From Balanoglossus misakiensis (taxonomy: Eukaryota; Animalia; Hemichordata), in assembly GCA_040954595.2 (NCBI GenBank), contig JBECUI020000029.1, positions 62,001 through 126,000 of the forward strand: a stretch of DNA of 64,000 nucleotides. Direction: 5' to 3'. A program made the position numbers and the translations under genes. Shown in pieces: positions 20,029 through 43,100 of the stretch. Within the stretch, counting starts at the first letter, position 1. Each line of letters begins with the position of its first letter. The notes below the pieces were generated by a model. It did not search any database and was not told where the DNA came from. It saw only the letters and a program-made list of their open reading frames with translations.

Positions 20029-21832
20029 AGTAAAGTTCCACGTGCATTCCTGGCCCTGGTTTTATTTATGTTTACAGACAATATTGCATTTTTGTACAAG
20101 TATTTTAATCAACTATAAATTTTGAATGTGTCATTTACCTGAACCGGTCATGTTGACCAGAATGATACATTTCTGCCTTCACTCACCCTATAAATATGTG
20201 ATTGAGACATAGGTCATTTGCATAAGCTAACATACCAGAAAGTAAGCATATCTGTTGTTTTCCCTGTGTCACTGCCATCAAAGTAAAAATTAGACGTTGT
20301 GTAGAGCAAACTCCAATTTTTTGTTCTCAATAAACATGGATGAATTACATAGAATGTGTTTGTTGTTTACAGTCTTTAAATGACACATTAGATTATGCAC
20401 TTTACAAAACGTTTCTGAGAAACAAGTGACTAACTAGTTTCTTTCCACTGTGGCCAACGTGGTTCACTGTTTGTGTCAGAATCTCTCTGTTTTGCAAGGA
20501 TTTTGAAATCATAGTGGTGACATGCATAGTGAAAATCAGCTACTTTCAAATGTCCGTCATGTTCATGCTGTAATTGAATTTTCAAAGCTGGGCTGGCGTG
20601 TTTTTTCTTATTTACATAAGTATCACACTTTATACATGTATCTTCATGGGGTTTTTTGAGTCCCGTATTTAGGTCCTCTCTCACAATTTTACGAAATATC
20701 GTATAACTGACAGTTGTTCTTCCCAGAAGAGATTGGTTGGTTATGAACTCTCGGTGTAACTGCGATATACTGTGGGCCGGCGCCAGGTACGGTTTAAATC
20801 GAGGATTCCTGCAGTAGTGAGATTCTACAATTCTGTGCCTGCGTACGTGTTCAGTGATATCAGTCAGCAAATTTGGATTGAGTTTCCGACGATGCCCTTT
20901 GTGTCGGCCCCTTGCATCTGGCATCAGACCAGTAAAGTTCCATGTGCATTCCTGGCCCTGGTTTTATTTATGTTTACAGACAATATTGCATTTTTGTACA
21001 AGTATTTTAATCAACTATAAATTTTGAATGTGTCATTTACCTGAACCGGTCATGTTGACCAGAATGATACATTTCTGCCTTCACTCACCCTATAAATATG
21101 TGATTGAGACATAGGTCATTTGCATAAGCTAACATACCAGAAAGTAAGCATATCTGATGTTTTCCCTGTGTCACTGCCATCAAAGTAAAAATTAGACGTT
21201 GTGTAGAGCAAACTCCAATTTTTTGTTCTCAATAAACATGGATGAATTACATAGAATGTGTTTGTTGTTTACAGTCTTTAAATGACACATTAGATTATGC
21301 ACTTTACAAAACGTTTCTGAGAAACAAGTGACTAACTAGTTTCTTTCCACTGTGGCCAACGTGGTTCACTGTTTGTGTCAGAATCTCTCTGTTTTGCAAG
21401 GATTTTGAAATCATAGTGGTGACATGCATAGTGAAAATCAGCTACTTTCAAATGTCCGTCATGTTCATGCTGTAATTGAATTTTCAAAGCTGGGCTGGCG
21501 TGTTTTTTCTTATTTACATAAGTATCACACTTTATACATGTATCTTCATGGGGTTTTCTGAGTCCCGTATTTAGGTCCTCTCTCACAATTTTACGAAATA
21601 TCGTATAACTGACAGTTGTTCTTCCCAGAAGAGATTGGTTGGTTATGAACTCTCGGTGTAACTGCGATATACTGTGGTCCGGTGCCAGGTACGGTTTAAA
21701 TCGAGGATTCCTGCAGTAGTGAGATTCTACAATTCTGTGCCTGCGTACGTGTTCAGTGATATCAGTCAGCAAATTTGGATTGAGTTTCCGACGATGCCCT
21801 TTGTGTCGGCCCCTTGCATCTGGCATCAGACC
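20029..21832. repeat. 902-bp direct tandem duplication (20029-20930 and 20931-21832)
   Basis: agtaaagttcca(c/t)gtgcattcctggcc occurs at 20029 and 20931, and the ORF stops at 20430 and 21332 are 902 bp apart. There are few substitutions and an AGT microhomology at the junction. Confidence 0.95.
20430..20924 (-). pseudogene. 5'-truncated duplicate (164 aa) of the transposase N-terminal-half gene
   Basis: Matches the last 164 aa of the 21332-22288 protein apart from two substitutions (PAH/PDH, LKK/LRK). It is cut off by the duplication junction. Confidence 0.8.
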
Positions 21833-22288
21833 AGTTGAACAGTGCATCATTTTGCTTAGAACGGTTCTAGTCCGCCTCTCACTAATGCCAAATAATTTCA
21901 GGAATGCATTTTTGCAGACAGTAACCGTTTCACCGCCTTCATTCACCAGGTGATAACGAACCGATTTCTTGTGTGACTTCATCTGCATATCCATCAGTTT
22001 GTAGAGCATCAAGTTCTGTTCATTATACACGCGACCATCAAAATATTTTCTCGTGGTGCCTAAAACATGCGTACTCCCAAGCTTCCGCATACAATTCCCT
22101 TGAACGCAGGCGCATTCCAAGGAAAGACTGTCAATATCTGGAAAAGGGCGATTTTTCCTTGGTTTTTGTCTCGGACACGTCTTTTTAGAATTCCTACGTG
22201 GCTTGTTGGCTCGAGCTGACAGTTCGGTTCTGCGTTGCTGCCACACAGGAATGGGTTCCCACGCATAAGCAACTCCCCGGCAGGCCAT
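21332..22288 (-). CDS. Sola1-like DNA transposase, N-terminal (DNA/Zn-binding) half, 318 aa from ATG 22288
   Basis: Motifs VCKNAFLKLFGIS, DARGRH, ESHYCR..YL..SISQLH, VSYTIFRKI and KPHEDTCIKCD..HDGHL match the region that precedes the catalytic core in invertebrate Sola1-type transposases (recognised from memory). The ORF is intact and a minus-strand AATAAA lies at ~20963-20968. Confidence 0.75.
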   Translation of the reverse strand: MACRGVAYAWEPIPVWQQRRTELSARANKPRRNSKKTCPRQKPRKNRPFPDIDSLSLECACVQGNCMRKLGSTHVLGTTRKYFDGRVYNEQNLMLYKLMDMQMKSHKKSVRYHLVNEGGETVTVCKNAFLKLFGISERRTRTVLSKMMHCSTGLMPDARGRHKGHRRKLNPNLLTDITEHVRRHRIVESHYCRNPRFKPYLAPDHSISQLHREFITNQSLLGRTTVSYTIFRKIVREDLNTGLRKPHEDTCIKCDTYVNKKKHASPALKIQLQHEHDGHLKVADFHYACHHYDFKILAKQRDSDTNSEPRWPQWKETS

Positions 22289-22335
22289 GGTCACAGCTGA
22301 AGTATTTGTTCAAGTACTGACTGACTAAACGCGGC

Positions 22336-23469
22336 ATGGAACAAACGAACGAACGACTTCACGTTCGGAAAAAAAATCGTTGCGAGCTGTTGGGTGCATG
22401 CCTCTATAGTTGTCGGCAACCGTTCTTTTTTATTGCTAAACAATGCTGTCAGAGCATGGAAGGTGTGGTGGAAAACGAACAGAGGTTTTGTACGACCAAC
22501 GATTGGATGGTGCTACATATGGACTTCCACAAGTCATTGCCGGTTCCTAAACTCAGCTCTGAAGACTTTTACTTTAAATCGAAATTGCAAATGAAGCTCC
22601 TTGGAATTTACAACGGGACAACGGAAAAGATGCATTGTTATGTATGGACAGAGCTCGATAGCAGAAAGTCTCCCGATGAAGTTATTACCTGTCTAAATCA
22701 CTTTTTTTATAACTCGGGTGTGACCAGCAGACATGCAGTTATTTACAGCGACAACTGCCGTGCCGAATTCAAGTGTGGGAAGTTAATGTTTTACTATGAC
22801 TATCTGTTACGAAAGGGCGTGTTTCGACGAATTGACTATAAAACTCTTGTGGCTGGACACACGTACTCCACCTGTGACCGAGTTTTTGCGTCCATTGAAA
22901 GGCATGCAAGTCGTTTCCAGAGTATAGAGACACCTCACGATTGGACATCTGTGATTCGAGGATCTTCTCTGAATGGGAACATTGGAGTTACGGAGATGAC
23001 TCACAGAGACTTTTTCAATTATTCTGATTTCCTGAAAAATGAGTACGTTGTGCGTTATGCAGATACAAACAATGTAACTTTTTACTACCAAGCCATGCAC
23101 TATTTTAATTTTGGAGAAGGAGAAAGGCTTGATACCGACGGCAACCTCAGAACATTTAGTCATGCAGATAAAGTTTGGGTGAGAACATCTCTAGATCCAA
23201 GCGAGACCCCGATTGTAGTCGACTTTAGAAAGAAGAAGCAGAACCGGCGTTTACAAGATTGTACGCTGAACAAACTTTATCAGGAACGTCGACCACTGGC
23301 GAGCAAAGTTTGGCGGGATCTTCAGAGTTTAGCCAAAAATTACCTGTCTCCGGAGGCAATAGAATTTTATAGGAATCTACCGCTTCAGGAGAGTAGTGGC
23401 ACCTCTGCAGACCCGTACGCCTTTCATGATGATGACGACGACGATGATGATGATATGGGCGGTGGTTGA
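22336..23469 (+). CDS. Sola1-like DDD transposase, catalytic (RNase H-fold) half, 377 aa (337 aa if ATG 22456 is used)
   Basis: Motifs HMDFHKSLPVP, FYFKSKL, CYVWTE..RKSPDEVITCL, IYSDNC and KTLVAGHTYSTCDRVFASIE supply three candidate catalytic Asp residues. There is a poly-Asp tail and AATAAA overlaps the stop (23469-23474). Confidence 0.82.
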   Translation: MEQTNERLHVRKKNRCELLGACLYSCRQPFFFIAKQCCQSMEGVVENEQRFCTTNDWMVLHMDFHKSLPVPKLSSEDFYFKSKLQMKLLGIYNGTTEKMHCYVWTELDSRKSPDEVITCLNHFFYNSGVTSRHAVIYSDNCRAEFKCGKLMFYYDYLLRKGVFRRIDYKTLVAGHTYSTCDRVFASIERHASRFQSIETPHDWTSVIRGSSLNGNIGVTEMTHRDFFNYSDFLKNEYVVRYADTNNVTFYYQAMHYFNFGEGERLDTDGNLRTFSHADKVWVRTSLDPSETPIVVDFRKKKQNRRLQDCTLNKLYQERRPLASKVWRDLQSLAKNYLSPEAIEFYRNLPLQESSGTSADPYAFHDDDDDDDDDMGGG

Positions 23470-23630
23470 ATAAACTGTCCTTTTCATGACGACAGTGATT
23501 TTGGATATTTGATGTGCGTGCACAGTTTATATGTAATATTTTCACACGAACGAGTTTTGACTGAATTTGATTAAAGAATGTACTCGATAATTAACAAATG
23601 TGCTGAATCGTGGTTATTATGTTGTTAATT

Positions 23631-23670
23631 TTTGTTTGTTTGTTTGTTTGTTTGTTTGTTTGTTTGTTTG
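23631..23670 (+). repeat. (TTTG)10 microsatellite
   Basis: Directly visible; also present in copy 2 at ~56486-56525. Confidence 0.95.
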
Positions 23671-23803
23671 TAAACAATTTCCGTTCATTCAACTGGCTAC
23701 AAAGTTGGATTTTTGTACTGGGAAGCGATAAACTCGCACATCAAAACCGGGGAGACTCGATCATTTTTCCCTGCAGGTAGCCTGAAAAGCACCCGGGCAG
23801 AGA

Positions 23804-23877
23804 TTACGTCATATATGGTCCACTTTAATACGAAATTATGCAAATGTGACATTTCACGGAAACGGCGTATATAAAAG
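23804..23877 (+). promoter_or_regulatory. Putative Pol II promoter of the winged-helix-SET gene
   Basis: CRE-like TTACGTCA at 23804, octamer ATGCAAAT at 23838 and TATATAAAAG at 23868, about 90 bp upstream of ATG 23969. Confidence 0.5.
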
Positions 23878-23968
23878 CGACCCTGGGCTATTGTTCGGAA
23901 TGCGTCATCGACGAGAGAGTGACTGATAATTCTTCTACCTCGAGTCAACCATTCTGTATATACTGAAC

Positions 23969-25306
23969 ATGGCTAGCTGGCGCAGGAAGAGACAAGGCAA
24001 TGTGCGGTCTGTAATCAACGAACGGCACCGCTCAGTTCAGTGTCCCTTTCTTCAAAAGTGGATCGGTGAGCAATTGGTATTTTCAGGTCGTTCAGAGGAT
24101 GAAGTCCAGTCCAGTACTGTATTTGAGAGCTACAAATGTTGGGTTGAAAACTATTCGTCGGCGGACAATCAAGTAATGATTATGGTTACTAAAGCTCGAT
24201 TTTTCAAGGTGAGAATGATCGCATTTTTCTTTCCCCCCCCCCCCCTCCCTCCCTCCCTCCCCCAAGGGACTCGTTTTCTGTCTCTTTTAAACCTGTAACT
24301 TAACGAAAAGGAAGTTTTTCACATATCTCTTCGTTGACACTATAGCAATTTGGAGCGCGGATGCTTCAAGAGAAGAGCGTTACCAAATCAAAGTCGGCCG
24401 GGGTTAATATTTATAGAGGTGTTCGTCTGAAAGCTGGTTCGCGAAGAATCTCAACGGGGAAACCTGAGCACAGTGTACTTCAGACCAGGGCAAGGGCATT
24501 TCTTGATGACGCCAGCGTGACCGTTCCGATCGAGGTAAGAATGGTGTTTTGTTTGGACTAGGACAATAGAACGTTGCAATGAGTGTGTCAATGGGTGTCC
24601 AAGTGCAAACGTGGTCTGCTTCTGTCCACAAATGCCATTAATTTTTGGCAGGATTTATAAAATTGTCAATGAAGAATACAAAAATGAAAAACAACAGTTA
24701 ATAGCAAACTGGTAGGATTGCAAGGGCTTGTAAAACGGTACACACTGTACCAGGAAGTTTGCAACACTAATGAAGAATGTATATGATATATTTAGGTGAG
24801 AACTGTTCGCGATCGCCGGGACGCAGGACGGTGCGCGTTTTCGACGAGGGATATTCAAGCCTGGGACGTCGTCTGCGAATACCGGGGCACGGTTATTAGC
24901 GTTGAAGAAGCTAGTCGGCGTGATGAGCTTTACAGGGCAGAGGGGAAACGACCACGCATGTTCCATCTCTACATTGGAAAGAGACACGTTGTGTGAGTGT
25001 ATCACTTAGTCGAATATATGGTCATATATTGCAAAGCATCTGTCGAAATAGAAAACGTAATATTGTCTATATTTTCCTCATTAACGCAGCATTGACGGAT
25101 ACGATGTCCCAGCCGGTGAAGAAAATTTAGCAGGCCTAATAAATCACAGTCAGCAGAACGCCAACTTGGTACCGGTTCGGATCGGAGAGCGCCTGGTTTT
25201 CTTTGCAACCAGGAATCTTTGTCAGGGAGTAGAGCTTTTGTATGATTACGGTGACGGGGGTGAAGAGGATTTCTTCAGTGGTTCTCAAACTTTTCCTGAA
25301 AATTAA
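23969..25306 (+). CDS. Winged-helix plus SET-domain lysine methyltransferase (SETD8/PR-Set7-like), 280 aa; exons 23969-24208, 24346-24534, 24796-24992, 25090-25306
   Basis: Three GT-AG introns (gtgaga/tatag, gtaaga/tttag, gtgagt/cgcag) join in frame to give 843 nt. SET motifs are AGRCAFSTRDI, VCEYRGTVI, IDG, LINHS and ELLYDYGD. The N-terminus VFESYKCWVEN..KARFFKQFG..IYRGVRLK resembles the winged helix of RFX factors and D5/P4 primase C-termini. Confidence 0.88.
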
Positions 25307-26209
25307 GGCATTAACACATCAACGCTTCGGGGTGTCGTAACGGCGGCGCGGCGGGGGGGGGGGGGACGTGAAAATGTTTGTATCAGGAACAAAATTCCCG
25401 TGCAAATCACCTTGATCCGGGTGGGTGGACTATTCGCGACAAATGTTGAAATCATACAAAGCATTTTACTTAATTAACCCATTTTTTTCATTTATTTGTT
25501 TACAGTTTACAACGTCATAGAGAAGTTGAACTAGAGACTGGATCAGCGTGGGTGACACCATAGTACACCAATGTTTTCTTCAGTTTGATTCAATTGTAAT
25601 TTAAAACTGAGATTGCCTAACGCTTTCCCAGATTTTTTTAACCACTGAGAAACTGTGGGTTTTTTTCTGGGTTTTGGTGCGAGGTGATCTCAGTCAGTGG
25701 TGTTAATTTAATTAATCATTTTCTTTTCCTATTTACGTCGACTGAAATGTATTTTGATAGGTGATAGTCATACCATAAAAAAAATCTTACGGCGCGACTG
25801 CCAAAATGTACATTTATTTGTCCGTTCCAAGTTATTTTGTGTATGTGTGATGGGTGCCGGTGACTGTGCAGGGTTGATTTCCCTAGAGCGACTGTTATAT
25901 TCGTTTTCCAACGATGATGAATTTACATGTTATTTGCTTGGCATTTTGACGCAGAGACACTTCTGAAAACACAAACCTATTAATTATGCCACGGGTGTAA
26001 ATTGATCACATTAAAAGAGGCTTTAGACGTTTGCCGCGAGCTCCTGGTGGGCAGAATCTTGTCAGCCCAAATTTGACTATAAGTACATAGCCAATGATGT
26101 GACGCTCTCCCACATCCTTCGCCGCGCCTTTTCGCTGATTTACAGCATCTTGCGTAAACACTGTCATTTGATCTTGCTTGGCAGAAGTCAACTTGCTCTA
26201 TACTACATT

Positions 26210-26575
26210 ATGGCGGCCAAGCTCAACTGCATATCAGATAATGCCAAGGAGCGTTTGAGAGGCATCCTCGCCAGAAGGAGTCGCGTTTCCGGTGACTGTG
26301 TGCTCTGGACGGGTGCAGCTTGTCGAAACGGCTATGGCTCTATTACGTTCAGAGATGAGAACACTCTAACCGCCTATGTCCATCACATTGCACTCCTAAT
26401 TAACGGAGTGCAATTGGTGGGCAGGCGGTTAGAGTGTTCTCATCTTTGCAACGAAAAGCTATGCATCCGCCCAGAGCACATTGTCCAGGAAACGCGACTC
26501 CTAAACATTTCACGAAAGACGTGCTTTAAATCCCCAAAAGGGGAGTGTCACCACGATCCCAGGTGCCTAAGGTGA
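26210..26575 (+). CDS. His-Cys box (I-PpoI-like, His-Me finger) endonuclease, 121 aa
   Basis: Motifs CVLWTG..NGYG, YVHH, CSHLCNEKLCIRPEHIVQE..N..RKTC..CHHDPRC match the zinc-binding-loop homing endonuclease pattern. The first ATG is at 26210 (the ORF-track start at 26099 is GTG). Confidence 0.88.
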   Translation: MAAKLNCISDNAKERLRGILARRSRVSGDCVLWTGAACRNGYGSITFRDENTLTAYVHHIALLINGVQLVGRRLECSHLCNEKLCIRPEHIVQETRLLNISRKTCFKSPKGECHHDPRCLR

Positions 26576-26845
26576 GTAATCCTCTTCTCATTTGATATGT
26601 ATTGTGTGACCCTGCAGTTGAAACGCTTTCATCAATAATTTGCGGCGCGTGGGTAATCTCGGTGTTATTGACAATGCAGCCGGCCCAAACATTTTTAAAT
26701 TAACACTGTTTCTGACTGTATTAACGAAATGTCCAATTTGCAAGTAGCCTATAGACAACCCTTTTGAATGAGTTTTGTCTCGTTGAGATTTTATACATAA
26801 GGAACAATCTAGATTTATTTTAGAAGACACTGTTCTTTTAAAACA

Positions 26846-27237
26846 GCTAGCATAATACAGCTAAATTTCGGAATTTCCGGACAATTTTCGGAATTCCTTT
26901 TAAATTTGAGAAATTTTTCATCAGATATAAGTGTTACTATTTATTGGACATGTTTTTATCATTGTTTACTTTTTAAGGTCATTCTCACCCCCCCCCCCCC
27001 AAAAAAAGCCGCTTTAGGCTTCATGTTCAGTAAAAAATCTGGAAAGTTCAGCTGAATTTTACACTGATCACACATTTTTGGGAAGGTCTGGCGCAAAATA
27101 AAGGATGACAAATGTAAATCTAATGTCACATTTGTAAACCTCTAAGTATTGTACACTCATTCTATTAAGTATATGCAAATAGTACGGATAATTTTTTCGG
27201 AATGTGGAATTCCGAAATTAGTTCGGAACGTGTTAGC
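26846..27237. mobile_element. Possible decayed non-autonomous DNA element with imperfect inverted ends
   Basis: ctaaatttcggaatt (26861) is inverted relative to aattccgaaattag (27208), and TTCGGAA-like motifs cluster at both ends. No TSD was identified. Confidence 0.3.
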
Positions 27238-27483
27238 AGTGAAGAGATCACCACTGAGGGTTGGAAGGCCTTGCCAGAAATTAACGCGTAAAGTACGCCC
27301 TCACAGGCCATGTAAACAAGGTCAAATAAGGCCGTCTGGCAAACGAATGATTAATTCAACGCGCCATTTGAGCCGAGCTGAGTTGGTCTGAGTTGCGTAT
27401 CACACAGACTTAGGCTGAATGTCAGTGGAGTAACCAGTCCGTTTTAGATTTACCAATGATGTGAATTTAATTTCTTCACCCAG

Positions 27484-27890
27484 AAAAACAGAACACAACT
27501 TGTCTGCAACATGATGCTGGAGGTGACACATGACAGAGAAGTGGATCCGCGTTGTCAACACAGATGCCAGCATTCAAAAGGGGAGTGCCACCTGCTAAAA
27601 TCAACTCATCTGCTGTTGGCCCATTTTACCTGTGGCAACTGTTCAGAGGAGACAACGTTTATTCCGTGCAAGCCAACACGCAATGTTGGGGTCTACCTGT
27701 CAACACAGATGCAAGCATTCATGTGAGTGAGTATCAGGACTGACCTTGTATTTGCTGAATAATTCATAATGCCTATTTTAGAATTCTTAGAGGCATTTGG
27801 AGTTCATTGCCTGGTCAACCAAACTACACCCCTTAACAGCTGAAACAAAATGCGTATTGTGTTCATTCATTCATTGCATCAATATATATA
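27484..27890 (+). repeat. Diverged progenitor-like copies of the array monomer (two hairpins plus the intron-like part)
   Basis: Segments colinear with the monomer: cacagatgccagcattca, aactcatctgctgttggcc, gtgagtgagt, tgcctattttagaattctta and ttcattcattcattgcatcaatatat. Confidence 0.85.
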
Positions 27891-28151
27891 GGCAACATGA
27901 GTATCAAGTAGCACTATTTGTTTACGATTGTATTCATGAAAACTTCCCACTAACAATTCCACAGTTAATATTGAACACATTTATCCAACAAGGTCAAAAG
28001 AAAAAGGGAATCTTCTGGTTCCAAAATACGCCACAAATGTGGGTCAACATACAGTGAAATATTATGGTGCTCAAATATGCAACATATCAAATCTGTCTCA
28101 TCAAAGTCATGCTTTAAAAAAGAATTGAAAAGGTATTATTTATCCATTTGA
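27875..28151 (+). pseudogene. Decayed 3' end of a non-LTR retrotransposon ORF2 (CR1/L2/Crack-like)
   Basis: The frameshifted translation YQVALFVYDCIHENFP / HIYPTRSKEKGNLLVPKYATNVGQHTVKYYGAQICN / IKSVSSKSCFKKELKRYYL* matches the typical HxYxTR..LxVP..TxxG..YxG..WN..FKxxLK C-terminus of these LINEs. Confidence 0.75.
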
Positions 28152-28194
28152 CTGCTGTATTTTCAGAAGGAAAACAAACTGAATTTGGTTTTTC

Positions 28195-31100
28195 AAGTAC
28201 CTTATATTTTCTGTAAAATAGACATTTAATTGGCAAGCCGTCCTGCATCAATTATTAATTGTGTACATGCACTAAAGCGCCCTCACTGCTGGGTGTGTTG
28301 TATGGTCTTTAACCCTGTTTCAAATTAGAGTACTTTCTGCAATTTCAAGACAGATCTTACGTGCCATTGGAGAGCTCCATTGACTGGTCATTCATACTGT
28401 TTTCATTCATTCATTGCGGCATCAATATATTTTATCTATTCTAGCCAAAGAGCTTGGCACCTGTTGAAATGAACTCATCTGCTGTGGGCCAGTTTATTGG
28501 TGGCAGTTGAGCTGAGGAGAGCACCTTCCTTCCCGGCACGCCACCAAGTAAAGTTCCACGCCGCCCACCACAGATGCCAGCATTCATTCATGCGAGTGAG
28601 TGTAATTGCAAATTTGCCTATTCTAGATCTGTAATGGAAATGGAGAAAGTACCTTATATTTTCTGTAAAATAGACATTTAATTGGCAAGCCGTCCTGCAT
28701 CAATTATTAATTGTGTACATGCACTAAAGCGCCCTCACTGCTGGGTGTGTTGTATGGTCTTTAACCCTGTTTCAAATTAGAGTACTTTCTGCAATTTCAA
28801 GACAGATCTTACGTGCCATTGGAGAGCTCCATTGACTGGTCATTCATACTGTTTTCATTCATTCATTGCGGCATCAATATATTTTATCTATTCTAGCCAA
28901 AGAGCTTGGCACCTGTTGAAATGAACTCATCTGCTGTGGGCCAGTTTATTGGTGGCAGTTGAGCTGAGGAGAGCACCTTCCTTCCCGGCACGCCACCAAG
29001 TAAAGTTCCACGCCGCCCACCACAGATGCCAGCATTCATTCATGCGAGTGAGTGTAATTGCAAATTTGCCTATTCTAGATCTGTAATGGAAATGGAGAAA
29101 GTACCTTATATTTTCTGTAAAATAGACATTTAATTGGCAAGCCGTCCTGCATCAATTATTAATTGTGTACATGCACTAAAGCGCCCTCACTGCTGGGTGT
29201 GTTGTATGGTCTTTAACCCTGTTTCAAATTAGAGTACTTTCTGCAATTTCAAGACAGATCTTACGTGCCATTGGAGAGCTCCATTGACTGGTCATTCATA
29301 CTGTTTTCATTCATTCATTGCGGCATCAATATATTTTATCTATTCTAGCCAAAGAGCTTGGCACCTGTTGAAATGAACTCATCTGCTGTGGGCCAGTTTA
29401 TTGGTGGCAGTTGAGCTGAGGAGAGCACCTTCCTTCCCGGCACGCCACCAAGTAAAGTTCCACGCCGCCCACCACAGATGCCAGCATTCATTCATGCGAG
29501 TGAGTGTAATTGCAAATTTGCCTATTCTAGATCTGTAATGGAAATGGAGAAAGTACCTTATATTTTCTGTAAAATAGACATTTAATTGGCAAGCCGTCCT
29601 GCATCAATTATTAATTGTGTACATGCACTAAAGCGCCCTCACTGCTGGGTGTGTTGTATGGTCTTTAACCCTGTTTCAAATTAGAGTACTTTCTGCAATT
29701 TCAAGACAGATCTTACGTGCCATTGGAGAGCTCCATTGACTGGTCATTCATACTGTTTTCATTCATTCATTGCGGCATCAATATATTTTATCTATTCTAG
29801 CCAAAGAGCTTGGCACCTGTTGAAATGAACTCATCTGCTGTGGGCCAGTTTATTGGTGGCAGTTGAGCTGAGGAGAGCACCTTCTTTCCCGGCACGCCAC
29901 CAAGTAAAGTTCCACGCCGCCCACCACAGATGCCAGCATTCATTCATGCGAGTGAGTGTAATTGCAAATTTGCCTATTCTAGATCTGTAATGGAAATGGA
30001 GAAAGTACCTTATATTTTCTGTAAAATAGACATTTAATTGGCAAGCCGTCCTGCATCAATTATTAATTGTGTACATGCACTAAAGCGCCCTCACTGCTGG
30101 GTGTGTTGTATGGTCTTTAACCCTGTTTCAAATTAGAGTACTTTCTGCAATTTCAAGACAGATCTTACGTGCCATTGGAGAGCTCCATTGACTGGTCATT
30201 CATACTGTTTTCATTCATTCATTGCGGCATCAATATATTTTATCTATTCTAGCCAAAGAGCTTGGCACCTGTTGAAATGAACTCATCTGCTGTGGGCCAG
30301 TTTATTGGTGGCAGTTGAGCTGAGGAGAGCACCTTCCTTCCCGGCACGCCACCAAGTAAAGTTCCACGCCGCCCACCACAGATGCCAGCATTCATTCATG
30401 CGAGTGAGTGTAATTGCAAATTTGCCTATTCTAGATCTGTAATGGAAATGGAGAAAGTACCTTATATTTTCTGTAAAATAGACATTTAATTGGCAAGCCG
30501 TCCTGCATCAATTATTAATTGTGTACATGCACTAAAGCGCCCTCACTGCTGGGTGTGTTGTATGGTCTTTAACCCTGTTTCAAATTAGAGTACTTTCTGC
30601 AATTTCAAGACAGATCTTACGTGCCATTGGAGAGCTCCATTGACTGGTCATTCATACTGTTTTCATTCATTCATTGCGGCATCAATATATTTTATCTATT
30701 CTAGCCAAAGAGCTTGGCACCTGTTGAAATGAACTCATCTGCTGTGGGCCAGTTTATTGGTGGCAGTTGAGCTGAGGAGAGCACCTTCCTTCCCGGCACG
30801 CCACCAAGTAAAGTTCCACGCCGCCCACCACAGATGCCAGCATTCATTCATGCGAGTGAGTGTAATTGCAAATTTGCCTATTCTAGAATTCTTACGTGCC
30901 ATTGGAGAGCTCCATTGACTGGTCATTCATACTGTTTTCATTCATTCATTGCGGCATCAATATATTTTATCTATTCTAGCCAAAGAGCTTGGCACCTGTT
31001 GAAATGAACTCATCTGCTGTGGGCCAGTTTATTGGTGGCAGTTGAGCTGAGGAGAGCACCTTCCTTCCCGGCACGCCACCAAGTAAAGTTCCACGCCGCC

Positions 31101-34100
31101 CACCACAGATGCCAGCATTCATTCATGCGAGTGAGTGTAATTGCAAATTTGCCTATTCTAGATCTGTAATGGAAATGGAGAAAGTACCTTATATTTTCTG
31201 TAAAATAGACATTTAATTGGCAAGCCGTCCTGCATCAATTATTAATTGTGTACATGCACTAAAGCGCCCTCACTGCTGGGTGTGTTGTATGGTCTTTAAC
31301 CCTGTTTCAAATTAGAGTACTTTCTGCAATTTCAAGACAGATCTTACGTGCCATTGGAGAGCTCCATTGACTGGTCATTCATACTGTTTTCATTCATTCA
31401 TTGCGGCATCAATATATTTTATCTATTCTAGCCAAAGAGCTTGGCACCTGTTGAAATGAACTCATCTGCTGTGGGCCAGTTTATTGGTGGCAGTTGAGCT
31501 GAGGAGAGCACCTTCTTTCCCGGCACGCCACCAAGTAAAGTTCCACGCCGCCCACCACAGATGCCAGCATTCATTCATGCGAGTGAGTGTAATTGCAAAT
31601 TTGCCTATTCTAGAATCTTACGTGCCATTGGAGAGCTCCATTGACTGGTCATTCATACTGTTTTCATTCATTCATTGCGGCATCAATATATTTTATCTAT
31701 TCTAGCCAAAGAGCTTGGCACCTGTTGAAATGAACTCATCTGCTGTGGGCCAGTTTATTGGTGGCAGTTGAGCTGAGGAGAGCACCTTCTTTCCCGGCAC
31801 GCCACCAAGTAAAGTTCCACGCCGCCCACCACAGATGCCAGCATTCATTCATGCGAGTGAGTGTAATTGCAAATTTGCCTATTTACGTGCCATTGGAGAG
31901 CTCCATTGACTGGTCATTCATACTGTTTTCATTCATTCATTGCGGCATCAATATATTTTATCTATTCTAGCCAAAGAGCTTGGCACCTGTTGAAATGAAC
32001 TCATCTGCTGTGGGCCAGTTTATTGGTGGCAGTTGAGCTGAGGAGAGCACCTTCCTTCCCGGCACGCCACCAAGTAAAGTTCCACGCCGCCCACCACAGA
32101 TGCCAGCATTCATTCATGCGAGTGAGTGTAATTGCAAATTTGCCTATTCTAGATCTGTAATGGAAATGGAGAAAGTACCTTATATTTTCTGTAAAATAGA
32201 CATTTAATTGGCAAGCCGTCCTGCATCAATTATTAATTGTGTACATGCACTAAAGCGCCCTCACTGCTGGGTGTGTTGTATGGTCTTTAACCCTGTTTCA
32301 AATTAGAGTACTTTCTGCAATTTCAAGACAGATCTTACGTGCCATTGGAGAGCTCCATTGACTGGTCATTCATACTGTTTTCATTCATTCATTGCGGCAT
32401 CAATATATTTTATCTATTCTAGCCAAAGAGCTTGGCACCTGTTGAAATGAACTCATCTGCTGTGGGCCAGTTTATTGGTGGCAGTTGAGCTGAGGAGAGC
32501 ACCTTCTTTCCCGGCACGCCACCAAGTAAAGTTCCACGCCGCCCACCACAGATGCCAGCATTCATTCATGCGAGTGAGTGTAATTGCAAATTTGCCTATT
32601 CTAGAATCTTACGTGCCATTGGAGAGCTCCATTGACTGGTCATTCATACTGTTTTCATTTATTCATTGCGGCATCAATATATTTTATCTATTCTAGCCAA
32701 AGAGCTTGGCACCTGTTGAAATGAACTCATCTGCTGTGGGCCAGTTTATTGGTGGCAGTTGAGCTGAGGAGAGCACCTTCTTTCCCGGCACGCCACCAAG
32801 TAAAGTTCCACGCCGCCCACCACAGATGCCAGCATTCATTCATGCGAGTGAGTGTAATTGCAAATTTGCCTATTCTAGAATCTTACGTGCCATTGGAGAG
32901 CTCCATTGACTGGTCATTCATACTGTTTTCATTCATTCATTGCAGCATCAATATATTTTATCTATTCTAGCCAAAGAGCTTGGCACCTGTTGAAATGAAC
33001 TCATCTGCTGTGGGCCAGTTTATTGGTGGCAGTTGAGCTGAGGAGAGCACCTTCCTTCCCGGCACGCCACCAAGTAAAGTTCCACGCCGCCCACCACAGA
33101 TGCCAGCATTCATTCATGCGAGTGAGTGTAATTGCAAATTTGCCTATTCTAGAATCTTACGTGCCATTGGAGAGCTCCATTGACTGGTCATTCATACTGT
33201 TTTCATTCATTCATTGCGGCATCAATATATTTTATCTATTCTAGCCAAAGAGCTTGGCACCTGTTGAAATGAACTCATCTGCTGTGGGCCAGTTTATTGG
33301 TGGCAGTTGAGCTGAGGAGAGCACCTTCCTTCCCGGCACGCCACCAAGTAAAGTTCCACGCCGCCCACCACAGATGCCAGCATTCATTCATGCGAGTGAG
33401 TGTAATTGCAAATTTGCCTATTCTAGAATCTTACGTGCCATTGGAGAGCTCCATTGACTGGTCATTCATACTGTTTTCATTCATTCATTGCGGCATCAAT
33501 ATATTTTATCTATTCTAGCCGAAGAGCTTGGCACCTGTTGAAATGAACTCATCTGCTGTGGGCCAGTTTATTGGTGGCAGTTGAGCTGAGGAGAGCACCT
33601 TCCTTCCCGGCACGCCACCAAGTAAAGTTCCACGCCGCCCACCACAGATGCCAGCATTCATTCATGCGAGTGAGTGTAATTGCAAATTTGCCTATTCTAG
33701 ATCTGTAATGGAAATGGAGAAAGTACCTTATATTTTCTGTAAAATAGACATTTAATTGGCAAGCCGTCCTGCATCAATTATTAATTGTGTACATGCACTA
33801 AAGCGCCCTCACTGCTGGGTGTGTTGTATGGTCTTTAACCCTGTTTCAAATTAGAGTACTTTCTGCAATTTCAAGACAGATCTTACGTGCCATTGGAGAG
33901 CTCCATTGACTGGTCATTCATACTGTTTTCATTCATTCATTGCGGCATCAATATATTTTATCTATTCTAGCCAAAGAGCTTGGCACCTGTTGAAATGAAC
34001 TCATCTGCTGTGGGCCAGTTTATTGGTGGCAGTTGAGCTGAGGAGAGCACCTTCCTTCCCGGCACGCCACCAAGTAAAGTTCCACGCCGCCCACCACAGA

Positions 34101-37100
34101 TGCCAGCATTCATTCATGCGAGTGAGTGTAATTGCAAATTTGCCTATTCTAGATTCTTACGTGCCATTGGAGAGCTCCATTGACTGGTCATTCATACTGT
34201 TTTCATTCATTCATTGCGGCATCAATATATTTTATCTATTCTAGCCAAAGAGCTTGGCACCTGTTGAAATGAACTCATCTGCTGTGGGCCAGTTTATTGG
34301 TGGCAGTTGAGCTGAGGAGAGCACCTTCCTTCCCGGCACGCCACCAAGTAAAGTTCCACGCCGCCCACCACAGATGCCAGCATTCATTCATGCGAGTGAG
34401 TGTAATTGCAAATTTGCCTATTCTAGAATCTTACGTGCCATTGGAGAGCTCCATTGACTGGTCATTCATACTGTTTTCATTCATTCATTGCGGCATCAAT
34501 ATATTTTATCTATTCTAGCCAAAGAGCTTGGCACCTGTTGAAATGAACTCATCTGCTGTGGGCCAGTTTATTGGTGGCAGTTGAGCTGAGGAGAGCACCT
34601 TCCTTCCCGGCACGCCACCAAGTAAAGTTCCACGCCGCCCACCACAGATGCCAGCATTCATTCATGCGAGTGAGTGTAATTGCAAATTTGCCTATTCTAG
34701 ATCTGTAATGGAAATGGAGAAAGTACCTTATATTTTCTGTAAAATAGTGGCAAGCCGTCCTGCATCAATTATTAATTGTGTACATGCACTAAAGCGCCCT
34801 CACTGCTGGGTGTGTTGTATGGTCTTTAACCCTGTTTCAAATTAGAGTACTTTCTGCAATTTCAAGACAGATCTTACGTGCCATTGGAGAGCTCCATTGA
34901 CTGGTCATTCATACTGTTTTCATTCATTCATTGCGGCATCAATATATTTTATCTATTCTAGCCAAAGAGCTTGGCACCTGTTGAAATGAACTCATCTGCT
35001 GTGGGCCAGTTTATTGGTGGCAGTTGAGCTGAGGAGAGCACCTTCCTTCCCGGCACGCCACCAAGTAAAGTTCCACGCCGCCCACCACAGATGCCAGCAT
35101 TCATTCATGCGAGTGAGTGTAATTGCAAATTTGCCTATTCTAGATCTGTAATGGAAATGGAGAAAGTACCTTATATTTTCTGTAAAATAGACATTTAATT
35201 GGCAAGCCGTCCTGCATCAATTATTAATTGTGTACATGCACTAAAGCGCCCTCACTGCTGGGTGTGTTGTATGGTCTTTAACCCTGTTTCAAATTAGAGT
35301 ACTTTCTGCAATTTCAAGACAGATCTTACGTGCCATTGGAGAGCTCCATTGACTGGTCATTCATACTGTTTTCATTCATTCATTGCGGCATCAATATATT
35401 TTATCTATTCTAGCCAAAGAGCTTGGCACCTGTTGAAATGAACTCATCTGCTGTGGGCCAGTTTATTGGTGGCAGTTGAGCTGAGGAGAGCACCTTCCTT
35501 CCCGGCACGCCACCAAGTAAAGTTCCACGCCGCCCACCACAGATGCCAGCATTCATTCATGCGAGTGAGTGTAATTGCAAATTTGCCTATTCTAGATCTG
35601 TAATGGAAATGGAGAAAGTACCTTATATTTTCTGTAAAATAGACATTTAATTGGCAAGCCGTCCTGCATCAATTATTAATTGTGTACATGCACTAAAGCG
35701 CCCTCACTGCTGGGTGTGTTGTATGGTCTTTAACCCTGTTTCAAATTAGAGTACTTTCTGCAATTTCAAGACAGATCTTACGTGCCATTGGAGAGCTCCA
35801 TTGACTGGTCATTCATACTGTTTTCATTCATTCATTGCGGCATCAATATATTTTATCTATTCTAGCCAAAGAGCTTGGCACCTGTTGAAATGAACTCATC
35901 TGCTGTGGGCCAGTTTATTGGTGGCAGTTGAGCTGAGGAGAGCACCTTCCTTCCCGGCACGCCACCAAGTAAAGTTCCACGCCGCCCACCACAGATGCCA
36001 GCATTCATTCATGCGAGTGAGTGTAATTGCAAATTTGCCTATTCTAGATCTGTAATGGAAATGGAGAAAGTACCTTATATTTTCTGTAAAATAGACATTT
36101 AATTGGCAAGCCGTCCTGCATCAATTATTAATTGTGTACATGCACTAAAGCGCCCTCACTGCTGGGTGTGTTGTATGGTCTTTAACCCTGTTTCAAATTA
36201 GAGTACTTTCTGCAATTTCAAGACAGATCTTACGTGCCATTGGAGAGCTCCATTGACTGGTCATTCATACTGTTTTCATTCATTCATTGCGGCATCAATA
36301 TATTTTATCTATTCTAGCCAAAGAGCTTGGCACCTGTTGAAATGAACTCATCTGCTGTGGGCCAGTTTATTGGTGGCAGTTGAGCTGAGGAGAGCACCTT
36401 CCTTCCCGGCACGCCACCAAGTAAAGTTCCACGCCGCCCACCACAGATGCCAGCATTCATTCATGCGAGTGAGTGTAATTGCAAATTTGCCTATTCTAGA
36501 TCTGTAATGGAAATGGAGAAAGTACCTTATATTTTCTGTAAAATAGACATTTAATTGGCAAGCCGTCCTGCATCAATTATTAATTGTGTACATGCACTAA
36601 AGCGCCCTCACTGCTGGGTGTGTTGTATGGTCTTTAACCCTGTTTCAAATTAGAGTACTTTCTGCAATTTCAAGACAGATCTTACGTGCCATTGGAGAGC
36701 TCCATTGACTGGTCATTCATACTGTTTTCATTCATTCATTGCGGCATCAATATATTTTATCTATTCTAGCCAAAGAGCTTGGCACCTGTTGAAATGAACT
36801 CATCTGCTGTGGGCCAGTTTATTGGTGGCAGTTGAGCTGAGGAGAGCACCTTCCTTCCCGGCACGCCACCAAGTAAAGTTCCACGCCGCCCACCACAGAT
36901 GCCAGCATTCATTCATGCGAGTGAGTGTAATTGCAAATTTGCCTATTCTAGATCTGTAATGGAAATGGAGAAAGTACCTTATATTTTCTGTAAAATAGAC
37001 ATTTAATTGGCAAGCCGTCCTGCATCAATTATTAATTGTGTACATGCACTAAAGCGCCCTCACTGCTGGGTGTGTTGTATGGTCTTTAACCCTGTTTCAA

Positions 37101-40100
37101 ATTAGAGTACTTTCTGCAATTTCAAGACAGATCTTACGTGCCATTGGAGAGCTCCATTGACTGGTCATTCATACTGTTTTCATTCATTCATTGCGGCATC
37201 AATATATTTTATCTATTCTAGCCAAAGAGCTTGGCACCTGTTGAAATGAACTCATCTGCTGTGGGCCAGTTTATTGGTGGCAGTTGAGCTGAGGAGAGCA
37301 CCTTCTTTCCCGGCACGCCACCAAGTAAAGTTCCACGCCGCCCACCACAGATGCCAGCATTCATTCATGCGAGTGAGTGTAATTGCAAATTTGCCTATTC
37401 TAGAATCTTACGTGCCATTGGAGAGCTCCATTGACTGGTCATTCATACTGTTTTCATTCATTCATTGCGGCATCAATATATTTTATCTATTCTAGCCAAA
37501 GAGCTTGGCACCTGTTGAAATGAACTCATCTGCTGTGGGCCAGTTTATTGGTGGCAGTTGAGCTGAGGAGAGCACCTTCCTTCCCGGCACGCCACCAAGT
37601 AAAGTTCCACGCCGCCCACCACAGATGCCAGCATTCATTCATGCGAGTGAGTGTAATTGCAAATTTGCCTATTCTAGATCTGTAATGGAAATGGAGAAAG
37701 TACCTTATATTTTCTGTAAAATAGACATTTAATTGGCAAGCCGTCCTGCATCAATTATTAATTGTGTACATGCACTAAAGCGCCCTCACTGCTGGGTGTG
37801 TTGTATGGTCTTTAACCCTGTTTCAAATTAGAGTACTTTCTGCAATTTCAAGACAGATCTTACGTGCCATTGGAGAGCTCCATTGACTGGTCATTCATAC
37901 TGTTTTCATTCATTCATTGCGGCATCAATATATTTTATCTATTCTAGCCAAAGAGCTTGGCACCTGTTGAAATGAACTCATCTGCTGTGGGCCAGTTTAT
38001 TGGTGGCAGTTGAGCTGAGGAGAGCACCTTCCTTCCCGGCACGCCACCAAGTAAAGTTCCACGCCGCCCACCACAGATGCCAGCATTCATTCATGCGAGT
38101 GAGTGTAATTGCAAATTTGCCTATTCTAGATCTGTAATGGAAATGGAGAAAGTACCTTATATTTTCTGTAAAATAGACATTTAATTGGCAAGCCGTCCTG
38201 CATCAATTATTAATTGTGTACATGCACTAAAGCGCCCTCACTGCTGGGTGTGTTGTATGGTCTTTAACCCTGTTTCAAATTAGAGTACTTTCTGCAATTT
38301 CAAGACAGATCTTACGTGCCATTGGAGAGCTCCATTGACTGGTCATTCATACTGTTTTCATTCATTCATTGCGGCATCAATATATTTTATCTATTCTAGC
38401 CAAAGAGCTTGGCACCTGTTGAAATGAACTCATCTGCTGTGGGCCAGTTTATTGGTGGCAGTTGAGCTGAGGAGAGCACCTTCTTTCCCGGCACGCCACC
38501 AAGTAAAGTTCCACGCCGCCCACCACAGATGCCAGCATTCATTCATGCGAGTGAGTGTAATTGCAAATTTGCCTATTCTAGATCTGTAATGGAAATGGAG
38601 AAAGTACCTTATATTTTCTGTAAAATAGACATTTAATTGGCAAGCCGTCCTGCATCAATTATTAATTGTGTACATGCACTAAAGCGCCCTCACTGCTGGG
38701 TGTGTTGTATGGTCTTTAACCCTGTTTCAAATTAGAGTACTTTCTGCAATTTCAAGACAGATCTTACGTGCCATTGGAGAGCTCCATTGACTGGTCATTC
38801 ATACTGTTTTCATTCATTCATTGCGGCATCAATATATTTTATCTATTCTAGCCAAAGAGCTTGGCACCTGTTGAAATGAACTCATCTGCTGTGGGCCAGT
38901 TTATTGGTGGCAGTTGAGCTGAGGAGAGCACCTTCCTTCCCGGCACGCCACCAAGTAAAGTTCCACGCCGCCCACCACAGATGCCAGCATTCATTCATGC
39001 GAGTGAGTGTAATTGCAAATTTGCCTATTCTAGATCTGTAATGGAAATGGAGAAAGTACCTTATATTTTCTGTAAAATAGACATTTAATTGGCAAGCCGT
39101 CCTGCATCAATTATTAATTGTGTACATGCACTAAAGCGCCCTCACTGCTGGGTGTGTTGTATGGTCTTTAACCCTGTTTCAAATTAGAGTACTTTCTGCA
39201 ATTTCAAGACAGATCTTACGTGCCATTGGAGAGCTCCATTGACTGGTCATTCATACTGTTTTCATTCATTCATTGCGGCATCAATATATTTTATCTATTC
39301 TAGCCAAAGAGCTTGGCACCTGTTGAAATGAACTCATCTGCTGTGGGCCAGTTTATTGGTGGCAGTTGAGCTGAGGAGAGCACCTTCCTTCCCGGCACGC
39401 CACCAAGTAAAGTTCCACGCCGCCCACCACAGATGCCAGCATTCATTCATGCGAGTGAGTGTAATTGCAAATTTGCCTATTCTAGAATTCTTACGTGCCA
39501 TTGGAGAGCTCCATTGACTGGTCATTCATACTGTTTTCATTCATTCATTGCGGCATCAATATATTTTATCTATTCTAGCCAAAGAGCTTGGCACCTGTTG
39601 AAATGAACTCATCTGCTGTGGGCCAGTTTATTGGTGGCAGTTGAGCTGAGGAGAGCACCTTCCTTCCCGGCACGCCACCAAGTAAAGTTCCACGCCGCCC
39701 ACCACAGATGCCAGCATTCATTCATGCGAGTGAGTGTAATTGCAAATTTGCCTATTCTAGATCTGTAATGGAAATGGAGAAAGTACCTTATATTTTCTGT
39801 AAAATAGACATTTAATTGGCAAGCCGTCCTGCATCAATTATTAATTGTGTACATGCACTAAAGCGCCCTCACTGCTGGGTGTGTTGTATGGTCTTTAACC
39901 CTGTTTCAAATTAGAGTACTTTCTGCAATTTCAAGACAGATCTTACGTGCCATTGGAGAGCTCCATTGACTGGTCATTCATACTGTTTTCATTCATTCAT
40001 TGCGGCATCAATATATTTTATCTATTCTAGCCAAAGAGCTTGGCACCTGTTGAAATGAACTCATCTGCTGTGGGCCAGTTTATTGGTGGCAGTTGAGCTG

Positions 40101-43100
40101 AGGAGAGCACCTTCTTTCCCGGCACGCCACCAAGTAAAGTTCCACGCCGCCCACCACAGATGCCAGCATTCATTCATGCGAGTGAGTGTAATTGCAAATT
40201 TGCCTATTCTAGAATCTTACGTGCCATTGGAGAGCTCCATTGACTGGTCATTCATACTGTTTTCATTCATTCATTGCGGCATCAATATATTTTATCTATT
40301 CTAGCCAAAGAGCTTGGCACCTGTTGAAATGAACTCATCTGCTGTGGGCCAGTTTATTGGTGGCAGTTGAGCTGAGGAGAGCACCTTCTTTCCCGGCACG
40401 CCACCAAGTAAAGTTCCACGCCGCCCACCACAGATGCCAGCATTCATTCATGCGAGTGAGTGTAATTGCAAATTTGCCTATTTACGTGCCATTGGAGAGC
40501 TCCATTGACTGGTCATTCATACTGTTTTCATTCATTCATTGCGGCATCAATATATTTTATCTATTCTAGCCAAAGAGCTTGGCACCTGTTGAAATGAACT
40601 CATCTGCTGTGGGCCAGTTTATTGGTGGCAGTTGAGCTGAGGAGAGCACCTTCCTTCCCGGCACGCCACCAAGTAAAGTTCCACGCCGCCCACCACAGAT
40701 GCCAGCATTCATTCATGCGAGTGAGTGTAATTGCAAATTTGCCTATTCTAGATCTGTAATGGAAATGGAGAAAGTACCTTATATTTTCTGTAAAATAGAC
40801 ATTTAATTGGCAAGCCGTCCTGCATCAATTATTAATTGTGTACATGCACTAAAGCGCCCTCACTGCTGGGTGTGTTGTATGGTCTTTAACCCTGTTTCAA
40901 ATTAGAGTACTTTCTGCAATTTCAAGACAGATCTTACGTGCCATTGGAGAGCTCCATTGACTGGTCATTCATACTGTTTTCATTCATTCATTGCGGCATC
41001 AATATATTTTATCTATTCTAGCCAAAGAGCTTGGCACCTGTTGAAATGAACTCATCTGCTGTGGGCCAGTTTATTGGTGGCAGTTGAGCTGAGGAGAGCA
41101 CCTTCTTTCCCGGCACGCCACCAAGTAAAGTTCCACGCCGCCCACCACAGATGCCAGCATTCATTCATGCGAGTGAGTGTAATTGCAAATTTGCCTATTC
41201 TAGAATCTTACGTGCCATTGGAGAGCTCCATTGACTGGTCATTCATACTGTTTTCATTTATTCATTGCGGCATCAATATATTTTATCTATTCTAGCCAAA
41301 GAGCTTGGCACCTGTTGAAATGAACTCATCTGCTGTGGGCCAGTTTATTGGTGGCAGTTGAGCTGAGGAGAGCACCTTCTTTCCCGGCACGCCACCAAGT
41401 AAAGTTCCACGCCGCCCACCACAGATGCCAGCATTCATTCATGCGAGTGAGTGTAATTGCAAATTTGCCTATTCTAGAATCTTACGTGCCATTGGAGAGC
41501 TCCATTGACTGGTCATTCATACTGTTTTCATTCATTCATTGCAGCATCAATATATTTTATCTATTCTAGCCAAAGAGCTTGGCACCTGTTGAAATGAACT
41601 CATCTGCTGTGGGCCAGTTTATTGGTGGCAGTTGAGCTGAGGAGAGCACCTTCCTTCCCGGCACGCCACCAAGTAAAGTTCCACGCCGCCCACCACAGAT
41701 GCCAGCATTCATTCATGCGAGTGAGTGTAATTGCAAATTTGCCTATTCTAGAATCTTACGTGCCATTGGAGAGCTCCATTGACTGGTCATTCATACTGTT
41801 TTCATTCATTCATTGCGGCATCAATATATTTTATCTATTCTAGCCAAAGAGCTTGGCACCTGTTGAAATGAACTCATCTGCTGTGGGCCAGTTTATTGGT
41901 GGCAGTTGAGCTGAGGAGAGCACCTTCCTTCCCGGCACGCCACCAAGTAAAGTTCCACGCCGCCCACCACAGATGCCAGCATTCATTCATGCGAGTGAGT
42001 GTAATTGCAAATTTGCCTATTCTAGAATCTTACGTGCCATTGGAGAGCTCCATTGACTGGTCATTCATACTGTTTTCATTCATTCATTGCGGCATCAATA
42101 TATTTTATCTATTCTAGCCGAAGAGCTTGGCACCTGTTGAAATGAACTCATCTGCTGTGGGCCAGTTTATTGGTGGCAGTTGAGCTGAGGAGAGCACCTT
42201 CCTTCCCGGCACGCCACCAAGTAAAGTTCCACGCCGCCCACCACAGATGCCAGCATTCATTCATGCGAGTGAGTGTAATTGCAAATTTGCCTATTCTAGA
42301 TCTGTAATGGAAATGGAGAAAGTACCTTATATTTTCTGTAAAATAGACATTTAATTGGCAAGCCGTCCTGCATCAATTATTAATTGTGTACATGCACTAA
42401 AGCGCCCTCACTGCTGGGTGTGTTGTATGGTCTTTAACCCTGTTTCAAATTAGAGTACTTTCTGCAATTTCAAGACAGATCTTACGTGCCATTGGAGAGC
42501 TCCATTGACTGGTCATTCATACTGTTTTCATTCATTCATTGCGGCATCAATATATTTTATCTATTCTAGCCAAAGAGCTTGGCACCTGTTGAAATGAACT
42601 CATCTGCTGTGGGCCAGTTTATTGGTGGCAGTTGAGCTGAGGAGAGCACCTTCCTTCCCGGCACGCCACCAAGTAAAGTTCCACGCCGCCCACCACAGAT
42701 GCCAGCATTCATTCATGCGAGTGAGTGTAATTGCAAATTTGCCTATTCTAGATTCTTACGTGCCATTGGAGAGCTCCATTGACTGGTCATTCATACTGTT
42801 TTCATTCATTCATTGCGGCATCAATATATTTTATCTATTCTAGCCAAAGAGCTTGGCACCTGTTGAAATGAACTCATCTGCTGTGGGCCAGTTTATTGGT
42901 GGCAGTTGAGCTGAGGAGAGCACCTTCCTTCCCGGCACGCCACCAAGTAAAGTTCCACGCCGCCCACCACAGATGCCAGCATTCATTCATGCGAGTGAGT
43001 GTAATTGCAAATTTGCCTATTCTAGAATCTTACGTGCCATTGGAGAGCTCCATTGACTGGTCATTCATACTGTTTTCATTCATTCATTGCGGCATCAATA

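Follow-up and report, generated by a model that had tools for sequence, protein, structure and literature searches.

Can a DNA transposase be divided between two genes on opposite strands and still be maintained as one enzyme? The question is raised by a head-to-head gene pair in a 64,000-nucleotide stretch of Balanoglossus misakiensis DNA (contig JBECUI020000029.1, positions 62,001 to 126,000; the whole stretch is called the window, and coordinates count from its first letter). The front-half gene (21332..22288, minus strand) encodes 318 amino acids (aa) from its ATG, with a putative DNA-binding region, the residues C251/C254 and H279, and, at its end, a helix whose predicted docking site is on the catalytic half. 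The back-half gene (22456..23469, plus strand) encodes 337 aa forming a DUF7869 core of the RNase H/integrase type, with D23, D99, an inferred D141, the invariant H135 and an acidic tail. The explanation considered moderately probable here is that the pair represents the halves of one DUF7869 (Sola1-like) transposase, split once and long ago, whose products reassemble into a two-subunit enzyme.

Both open reading frames (ORFs) are uninterrupted where the original prediction placed them, from 22288 to 21332 on the minus strand and to 23469 on the plus strand, and the motifs on which it relied, EDTCIKCD..HDGHL in the minus ORF and HMDF in the plus ORF, are both found. Its statement that these two regions are normally contiguous in one polypeptide holds for the family. 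An index-free search with the front-half protein gave 2593 matches at E ≤ 0.001, of which 150 were listed, and 72 of these 150 homologues also match the back half, invariably in the order front then back. Coverage by the two halves is complementary and non-overlapping in these family homologues, with a median gap of 17.5 residues and an overlap of at most 1 residue among the matches listed. The first catalytic Asp of fused proteins follows the DxCxxC motif at a median of 61 residues, and the window front protein ends 70 residues after this motif. The breakpoint sits immediately before the first strand of the catalytic core. The back half matches DUF7869 (PF25273) with 54.6 bits against a gathering cut-off of 26 (E 1.4e-14). 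The front half has no Pfam match and falls in unnamed eukaryotic clusters of the ESM Atlas; a word-index search gave no relative for it, whereas the index-free search did. Scans of viral contigs found no relative, and the sole locus from the prokaryote scan (L002) lies in an unrelated Arcobacter ORF and was discarded because the resemblance was judged to be fortuitous; tblastn gave no match at 1e-4. One protein labelled as coming from a Microscillaceae metagenome-assembled genome (P0068) is regarded as probable host contamination. Both halves belong to one family rather than to unrelated ones and, judged by these alignments, the minus and plus ORFs are confirmed as the front and back halves of one transposase.

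The back-half model (predicted local distance difference test, pLDDT, 89.8) displays an RNase H core like that of retroviral integrases and mariner transposases. Its best structural match is the integrase of the foamy virus PFV (Z 10.7, root-mean-square deviation, rmsd, 2.6 Å over 132 residues); 22 chains reach Z ≥ 8, and the first 26 rows among the matches listed are all integrases or transposases. D23 and D99 are present in at least 90% of the aligned rows, and H135 and D141 in 54/54. D23, D99 and D141 are carried by strand 1, strand 4 and the helix after it, an arrangement that fits a DDD triad with D141 as the inferred third catalytic residue, although E148 is also nearly invariant and offers an alternative. 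Foldseek gives no match to the front half at E ≤ 0.001, nor does this half have a solved sequence relative (best E 0.25). VIA-align matches it weakly to the TnsB region ahead of the catalytic core (Z 6.5 and 5.4, rmsd 7-9 Å), and a single TnsB chain (8aa5) aligns weakly with the front and then the back half (39-175 and 197-454).

Does the division represent a recent accident? An inversion might recently have disrupted a single transposase gene in this genome, or an artefact of assembly might account for the layout; this explanation is already largely refuted and retains almost no probability. It can point to the other well-matched members of the family, which are single proteins (72 of the 150 listed matches), but the nearest relatives found for each half share its breakpoint (L001, P0003, P0004 and P0006-P0011), and the terminal features of each half are common to the split relatives. 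The six best front-half matches among those listed (P0006-P0011; 306-347 aa, E 4e-63 to 6.5e-30, 30-40% identity) carry no catalytic half and terminate 53-72 residues past DxCxxC; all but one of them have a similar tail of proline and tryptophan. The coral Oculina patagonica also has an annotated stand-alone front half (P0161). For the back half, two of 418 candidates (lengths 185-590), namely P0003 (51% identity) and Saccoglossus kowalevskii P0004 (47%; LOC100368598), begin with a Met at the breakpoint; P0005, a later version of the latter record, adds 38 N-terminal residues unlike the front half. The back-half searches took in proteins of 168-590 aa, a range that leaves room for a close fused form, and a wider search of limited sensitivity gave four matches among 1347 candidates. 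The front-half search, free of any length limit, found no fused form closer than P0013 (E 6e-21) among the matches listed. P0003 and P0006 each derive from a 2400-bp Logan contig and may be a pair. P0073, once considered as a split form, was dropped because its cluster mate P0170 reads on.

The trees place the split forms together. Their rows are fused matches with long alignments and the stand-alone proteins at the top of the lists, other short matches, many of them fragments, being left out. In the back-half tree one branch separates 6 split rows from 46 fused rows (support 100), and in the front-half tree 9 split rows are separated from 55 fused rows (support 97). The split back-half clade has a long stem of 1.07 changes per column, and the end branch of the window protein is short (0.28). 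From these sequences the split likely arose once, in an old animal lineage, and the possibility named at the outset, that close relatives would all be single ORFs and this copy a recent inversion, is contradicted by closest relatives that are also split.

Orientation is a separate matter. The sole relative with readable DNA is L001, a 2136-bp metagenome contig and one of 165 pattern matches. On a single strand it carries, in tandem, the end of a front-half gene with its stop at 307-309, followed in frame by another stop at 313-315, and then a back half that opens with its own ATG at 352 and is interrupted by an intron (427-738). The divergent layout is thus not universal. Because L001 carries the same two genes in tandem, the sequences point to the split as the conserved feature and to orientation as secondary. 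Fission followed by inversion would be the simplest course of events, a direction that one locus cannot fix. The intron of L001 falls just past the first catalytic Asp, and P0163 and P0171 start at the equivalent of its exon 2; this intron position may be common to the L001/P0163/P0171 subclade. The window back-half gene and P0003 read through the same position without an intron.

The head-to-head layout is not an assembly error, since a second copy in the window, 99.9% identical, agrees with the first and short-read contigs chain through the spacer. These contigs were built from a single sample, perhaps the source itself, that was sequenced in two runs; they show equal depth on both genes in run X1 (754 and 770), and no joints are listed. 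Runs X3 and X4 gave short pieces of low depth, which were set aside, and X5 gave none; no RNA run is among those listed.

The start codons of the two genes had been placed 47 or 167 bp apart, depending on which ATG opens the plus-strand frame. The arithmetic is right (the frame to 23469 encodes 377 aa from ATG 22336 or 337 aa from ATG 22456), but the shorter distance is unlikely and the longer one is favoured. The in-frame upstream ATG 22336 falls inside the spacer 22289..22455, as do two length variants among the copies. In the read contigs these variants are a 4-base loss (about 38-44% of depth) and one extra A, which leave 84 and 24 codons, respectively, in the frame opened by ATG 22336. 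Because the back-half relatives have their initial Met at the position matching ATG 22456, and because two common spacer variants break the frame from ATG 22336, the start at 22456 is the likelier one; the 47-bp spacing was dropped on the same grounds. The resulting 167-bp spacer has a CpG observed/expected ratio (o/e) of 1.31 and is a candidate bidirectional promoter. The statement that each half has its own AATAAA survives in part. One such motif overlaps the back-half stop codon on the plus strand (23469..23474), but the closest minus-strand motif beyond the front-half gene lies at 20963..20968, about 365 bp past the front-half stop, and the copy at 21231 is on the wrong strand. The DNA being AT-rich, AATAAA is weak evidence.

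Selection has acted on both halves. Compared with L001, the proportions of nonsynonymous (pN) and synonymous (pS) differences are 0.39 and 0.86 over 288 codons, and 0.39 and 0.93 over 77 codons, so that pN is well below a saturated pS for both halves, with an amino-acid identity of 42-45%. The window proteins keep family-conserved sites as the split sisters do (21/31 against 22 and 24; 20/23 against 17-22). Long-term purifying selection on both halves, open frames and the same breakpoint in relatives bear out the earlier view that this is not simple decay.

How could two separate proteins act as one transposase? Co-folding of the halves gave a score of 0.69, compared with 0.00 for the best of three controls, and thus the pair modelling predicts that the halves bind. 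The mark applied in this test is reached by 51/78 solved and 2/108 mismatched microbial pairs, and in eukaryotes by 39/65 and 2/126; for the present pair no solved sequence relative was found, yet fold relatives exist. The co-folding runs share at least 68% of contacts, with a partner pLDDT of at least 60. The predicted interface involves front residues 250-254 and 279-300 and back residues 129-139; the last helix of the front protein packs on the core strands, and C251, C254, H279 and H135 are all included. The face of this helix is mostly charged in fused forms and hydrophobic in split forms: hydrophobic residues occupy positions 292, 296 and 297 in 11/11, 11/11 and 10/11 split proteins, and in 11/53, 16/52 and 3/52 fused ones. 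Such a shift is as expected if the interface was strengthened once the covalent link had been lost. The models make a two-subunit enzyme likely.

In the proposed mechanism the 167-bp spacer would drive both head-to-head genes. The front protein would bind the DNA ends, and its last helix (residues about 279-300) would dock at the edge of the catalytic core. One zinc ion would then be held beside the third catalytic Asp, with C251, C254 and H279 contributed by the front protein and H135 by the back protein. Because the zinc site would be shared across the subunits next to this residue, catalysis would require both proteins, and the reassembled enzyme would cut and paste DNA. Because the halves were already independent genes, an inversion could change their orientation harmlessly; they are tandem in L001 and head to head in the window.

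Several observations weigh against a two-subunit transposase formed in this way. The trees behind the support values of 100 and 97 are quick LG+G4 searches without bootstrap on hand-picked rows, and two of the six back-half tree rows (P0163 and P0164) are fragments that cannot attest the split. Orientation was read directly in one relative, L001, where it is tandem. The hydrophobic shift counts as one inherited event and not as 11 independent ones. Resemblance to solved structures tends to carry split-gene halves through the complex test, and the score therefore speaks for fit and not for binding in the cell. The basis of the putative shared zinc site is interface membership and conservation, and the candidate DNA-binding role of the front half derives from its position in the family, with weak support from its fold. 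Conserved columns are kept at a median of 93% in fused forms and at 68-77% in three full-length split back halves; several changed family-conserved residues near the active site of the split clade could mean an altered function. The element ends are likewise elusive. The pair sits in an 8.15-kb gene-bearing unit (20043..28194) set in satellite DNA, and within 19590-28650 no inverted pair brackets either the unit or the gene pair, the ends being possibly lost in this copy. No target duplication was found at the ends of the unit, the element ends themselves not having been identified. Both window copies are parts of a tandem 32.9-kb repeat and not dispersed insertions. With no inverted repeats or target duplication bracketing the unit, the present copy is at most putatively mobile.

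These missing ends, together with the long stem and the altered motifs of the split clade, are what would be seen if the old and selected split had led elsewhere, the pair having been domesticated or repurposed as a non-transposing two-subunit DNA-binding nuclease or recombinase, perhaps acting on its own satellite array. The intron in the L001 back-half gene, in a position also suggested by the starts of P0163 and P0171, and the annotation of the halves as genes in Saccoglossus and Oculina point in the same direction. However, the pair is multi-copy in the window and has SET and His-Me nuclease genes crowded beside it in the manner of transposon cargo, and its relatives are few and scattered instead of forming one orthologue per genome (the four back-half matches in the wider search, which has limited sensitivity). 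Domestication is rated as rather unlikely.

The reading as a reassembling transposase must also be set against the history of the unit itself, which recurs after 32.9 kb at 99.9% identity with both transposase ORFs intact. The second front-half copy (54187..55143, minus strand) differs in one residue (M67L), and the second back-half copy (55311..56324, plus strand) encodes an identical protein. Next to the pair, at 20029..20933 on the minus strand, the 3' portion of the front-half gene is repeated in tandem (902 bp, 99.4% identical, without the start); this duplicate is present in both window copies and has double depth in run X1. Such features would also be left by a member of a real two-gene transposase family that was captured recently in satellite DNA as a silent passenger and multiplied by unequal crossing-over; the near identity of the copies, the position of the unit inside an array, its truncated duplicate and the failure to find element ends all fit. 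This is nevertheless improbable, as all four genes of the unit have open frames, the window proteins show a short end branch and no excess loss of conserved sites, and neither the genes nor the spacer show CpG depletion (o/e 0.83-1.31, the satellite having 0.45).

The truncated duplicate has features of its own. Its open frame (20430-20963) still encodes the CxxC..H region and the docking helix; its product, if expressed, could compete for the catalytic subunit. The junction of the duplicate has a short stretch in common with the satellite.

Downstream of the pair, on the plus strand, the unit contains a predicted SET-domain gene (23969..25306; 280 aa, exons 23969-24208, 24346-24534, 24796-24992 and 25090-25306), preceded by an octamer (23838), a TATA motif (23868) and cAMP-response-element (CRE)-like motifs (23804 and 23901). 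It encodes a possible chromatin modifier in a satellite-embedded cassette. An uninterrupted ORF of 121 aa (26210..26575, plus strand) resembles His-Me finger endonucleases (PF05551, 49.4 bits). Its coding sequence from 26276 to 26502 is an imperfect inverted repeat (71% over about 230 bp), in which the frame is open and matches Pfam; the arms 26350-26375 and 26423-26448 within it are 96% complementary. Read contigs of the same sample include diverged relatives of the SET (25037-25213) and His-Me (26502-26557) genes located elsewhere in the sample, and no diverged relatives of either transposase gene. At 26864-27235 inverted arms (26875-26897 and 27206-27228, 87%) coincide with many loose read-contig ends; this is likely a dispersed host repeat resembling a miniature inverted-repeat transposable element (MITE).

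A higher-order satellite occupies 1-20042, 28195-52884 and 61056-64000 of the window. The array between the units (28195..52884) comprises about 64 monomers of 452 and 274 bp, the difference being a 178-bp segment that lies between the arms of an 82% inverted repeat. Given a 71% likeness between the monomer and 27586-27732 inside the unit, the end of the cassette itself may have been the origin of the satellite. Within the array, 52345-52768 is a near-perfect 424-bp foldback, single in the window, with a TA duplication and CAG..CTG ends, and is MITE-like of the Tc1/mariner type.

A broader proposal can be offered tentatively. The pair could belong to an undescribed lineage of animal DNA transposons in which gene fission has made the transposase an obligate heterodimer, clamped by zinc through three front ligands and one back ligand and gated by co-expression, and carried in a cassette whose histone methyltransferase-like SET gene and homing-type nuclease maybe drive its own amplification in 33-kb satellite arrays. 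In its narrower form, this is a conserved and apparently undescribed two-gene transposase variant, for which head-to-head is one of at least two arrangements. It would offer a natural example of a cut-and-paste enzyme split where DNA binding gives way to catalysis, and retained in that state across distant animals (a hemichordate, a coral and the window host). It would also show that fission could be a source of two-component transposases like that of Harbinger. It also gives a domain boundary and a testable predicted interface for DUF7869, a family without a solved structure or an assigned function, and suggests a built-in two-key control that is potentially useful for split, retargetable transposase tools.

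How does the pair compare with known systems? DUF7869 proteins are presumably Sola1-type DDD transposases. Sola elements are described as having DDD transposases, 4-bp duplications and inverted ends of 11-1124 bp (PMC10741241), the hallmark of Sola1 being an AWWT target duplication and its example transposase a single ORF of 630 aa (PMC3845634). Passages of three further papers name the group without a usable motif (PMC3985635, PMC5751038 and PMC10294476). The window pair differs from Sola1 in its two ORFs on opposite strands instead of one, and neither inverted ends nor a 4-bp AWWT duplication was found at its unit. With the single-polypeptide DUF7869 (PF25273) proteins it shares the domain order, the CxxC..H residues, the acidic residues and the GH motif, but it consists of two genes with their own start and stop, and has a more hydrophobic interface helix and changed motif residues. 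No description of a split Sola1/DUF7869 transposase was found among the papers listed by the literature searches, and none of these listings mentions DUF7869; Repbase Reports and subscription papers lie outside that search.

PIF/Harbinger elements depend on their transposase and equally on a distinct DNA-binding protein that interacts with it (PMC9179366). By analogy, DNA binding and catalysis would also be assigned here to two proteins predicted to interact. By contrast, the Harbinger partner is a separate Myb/SANT protein accompanying a transposase of an unrelated family, whereas the window partner appears to be what was once the N-terminus of the enzyme itself, severed immediately ahead of the first catalytic strand. 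No Pfam family, Myb/SANT included, matches the front half, and the back half is DUF7869 and not DDE_Tnp_4. KolobokP combines a DDD/E transposase with a His-Me finger nuclease, about 450-bp terminal direct repeats and tandem multimers (PMC9587614). The His-Me finger gene (PF05551) by the transposase and the 452-bp satellite flanks recall this arrangement, a likeness that may be chance. The KolobokP transposase is a single Kolobok-type protein, and the window transposase is DUF7869 and split, with a SET gene present; KolobokP has terminal direct repeats with short inverted ends of their own, and the window unit is bordered by long stretches of satellite that meet it at different phases of the monomer.

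Retroviral integrases, mariner transposases and TnsB share the RNase H-type core with the back half (Z 8-10.7), but they are single chains from the DNA-binding domain to the core, with 6-17% identity. Two-gene transposition systems include RAG1/RAG2 and ProtoRAG, mudrA/mudrB of MuDR, and IS1/IS3. RAG2 and MURB are accessory proteins of separate origin, and the ORFs of IS1/IS3 are rejoined by frameshifting. Such rejoining is impossible for the window pair: its halves lie on opposite strands, and therefore neither splicing nor frameshifting nor readthrough in cis can rejoin them in this copy.

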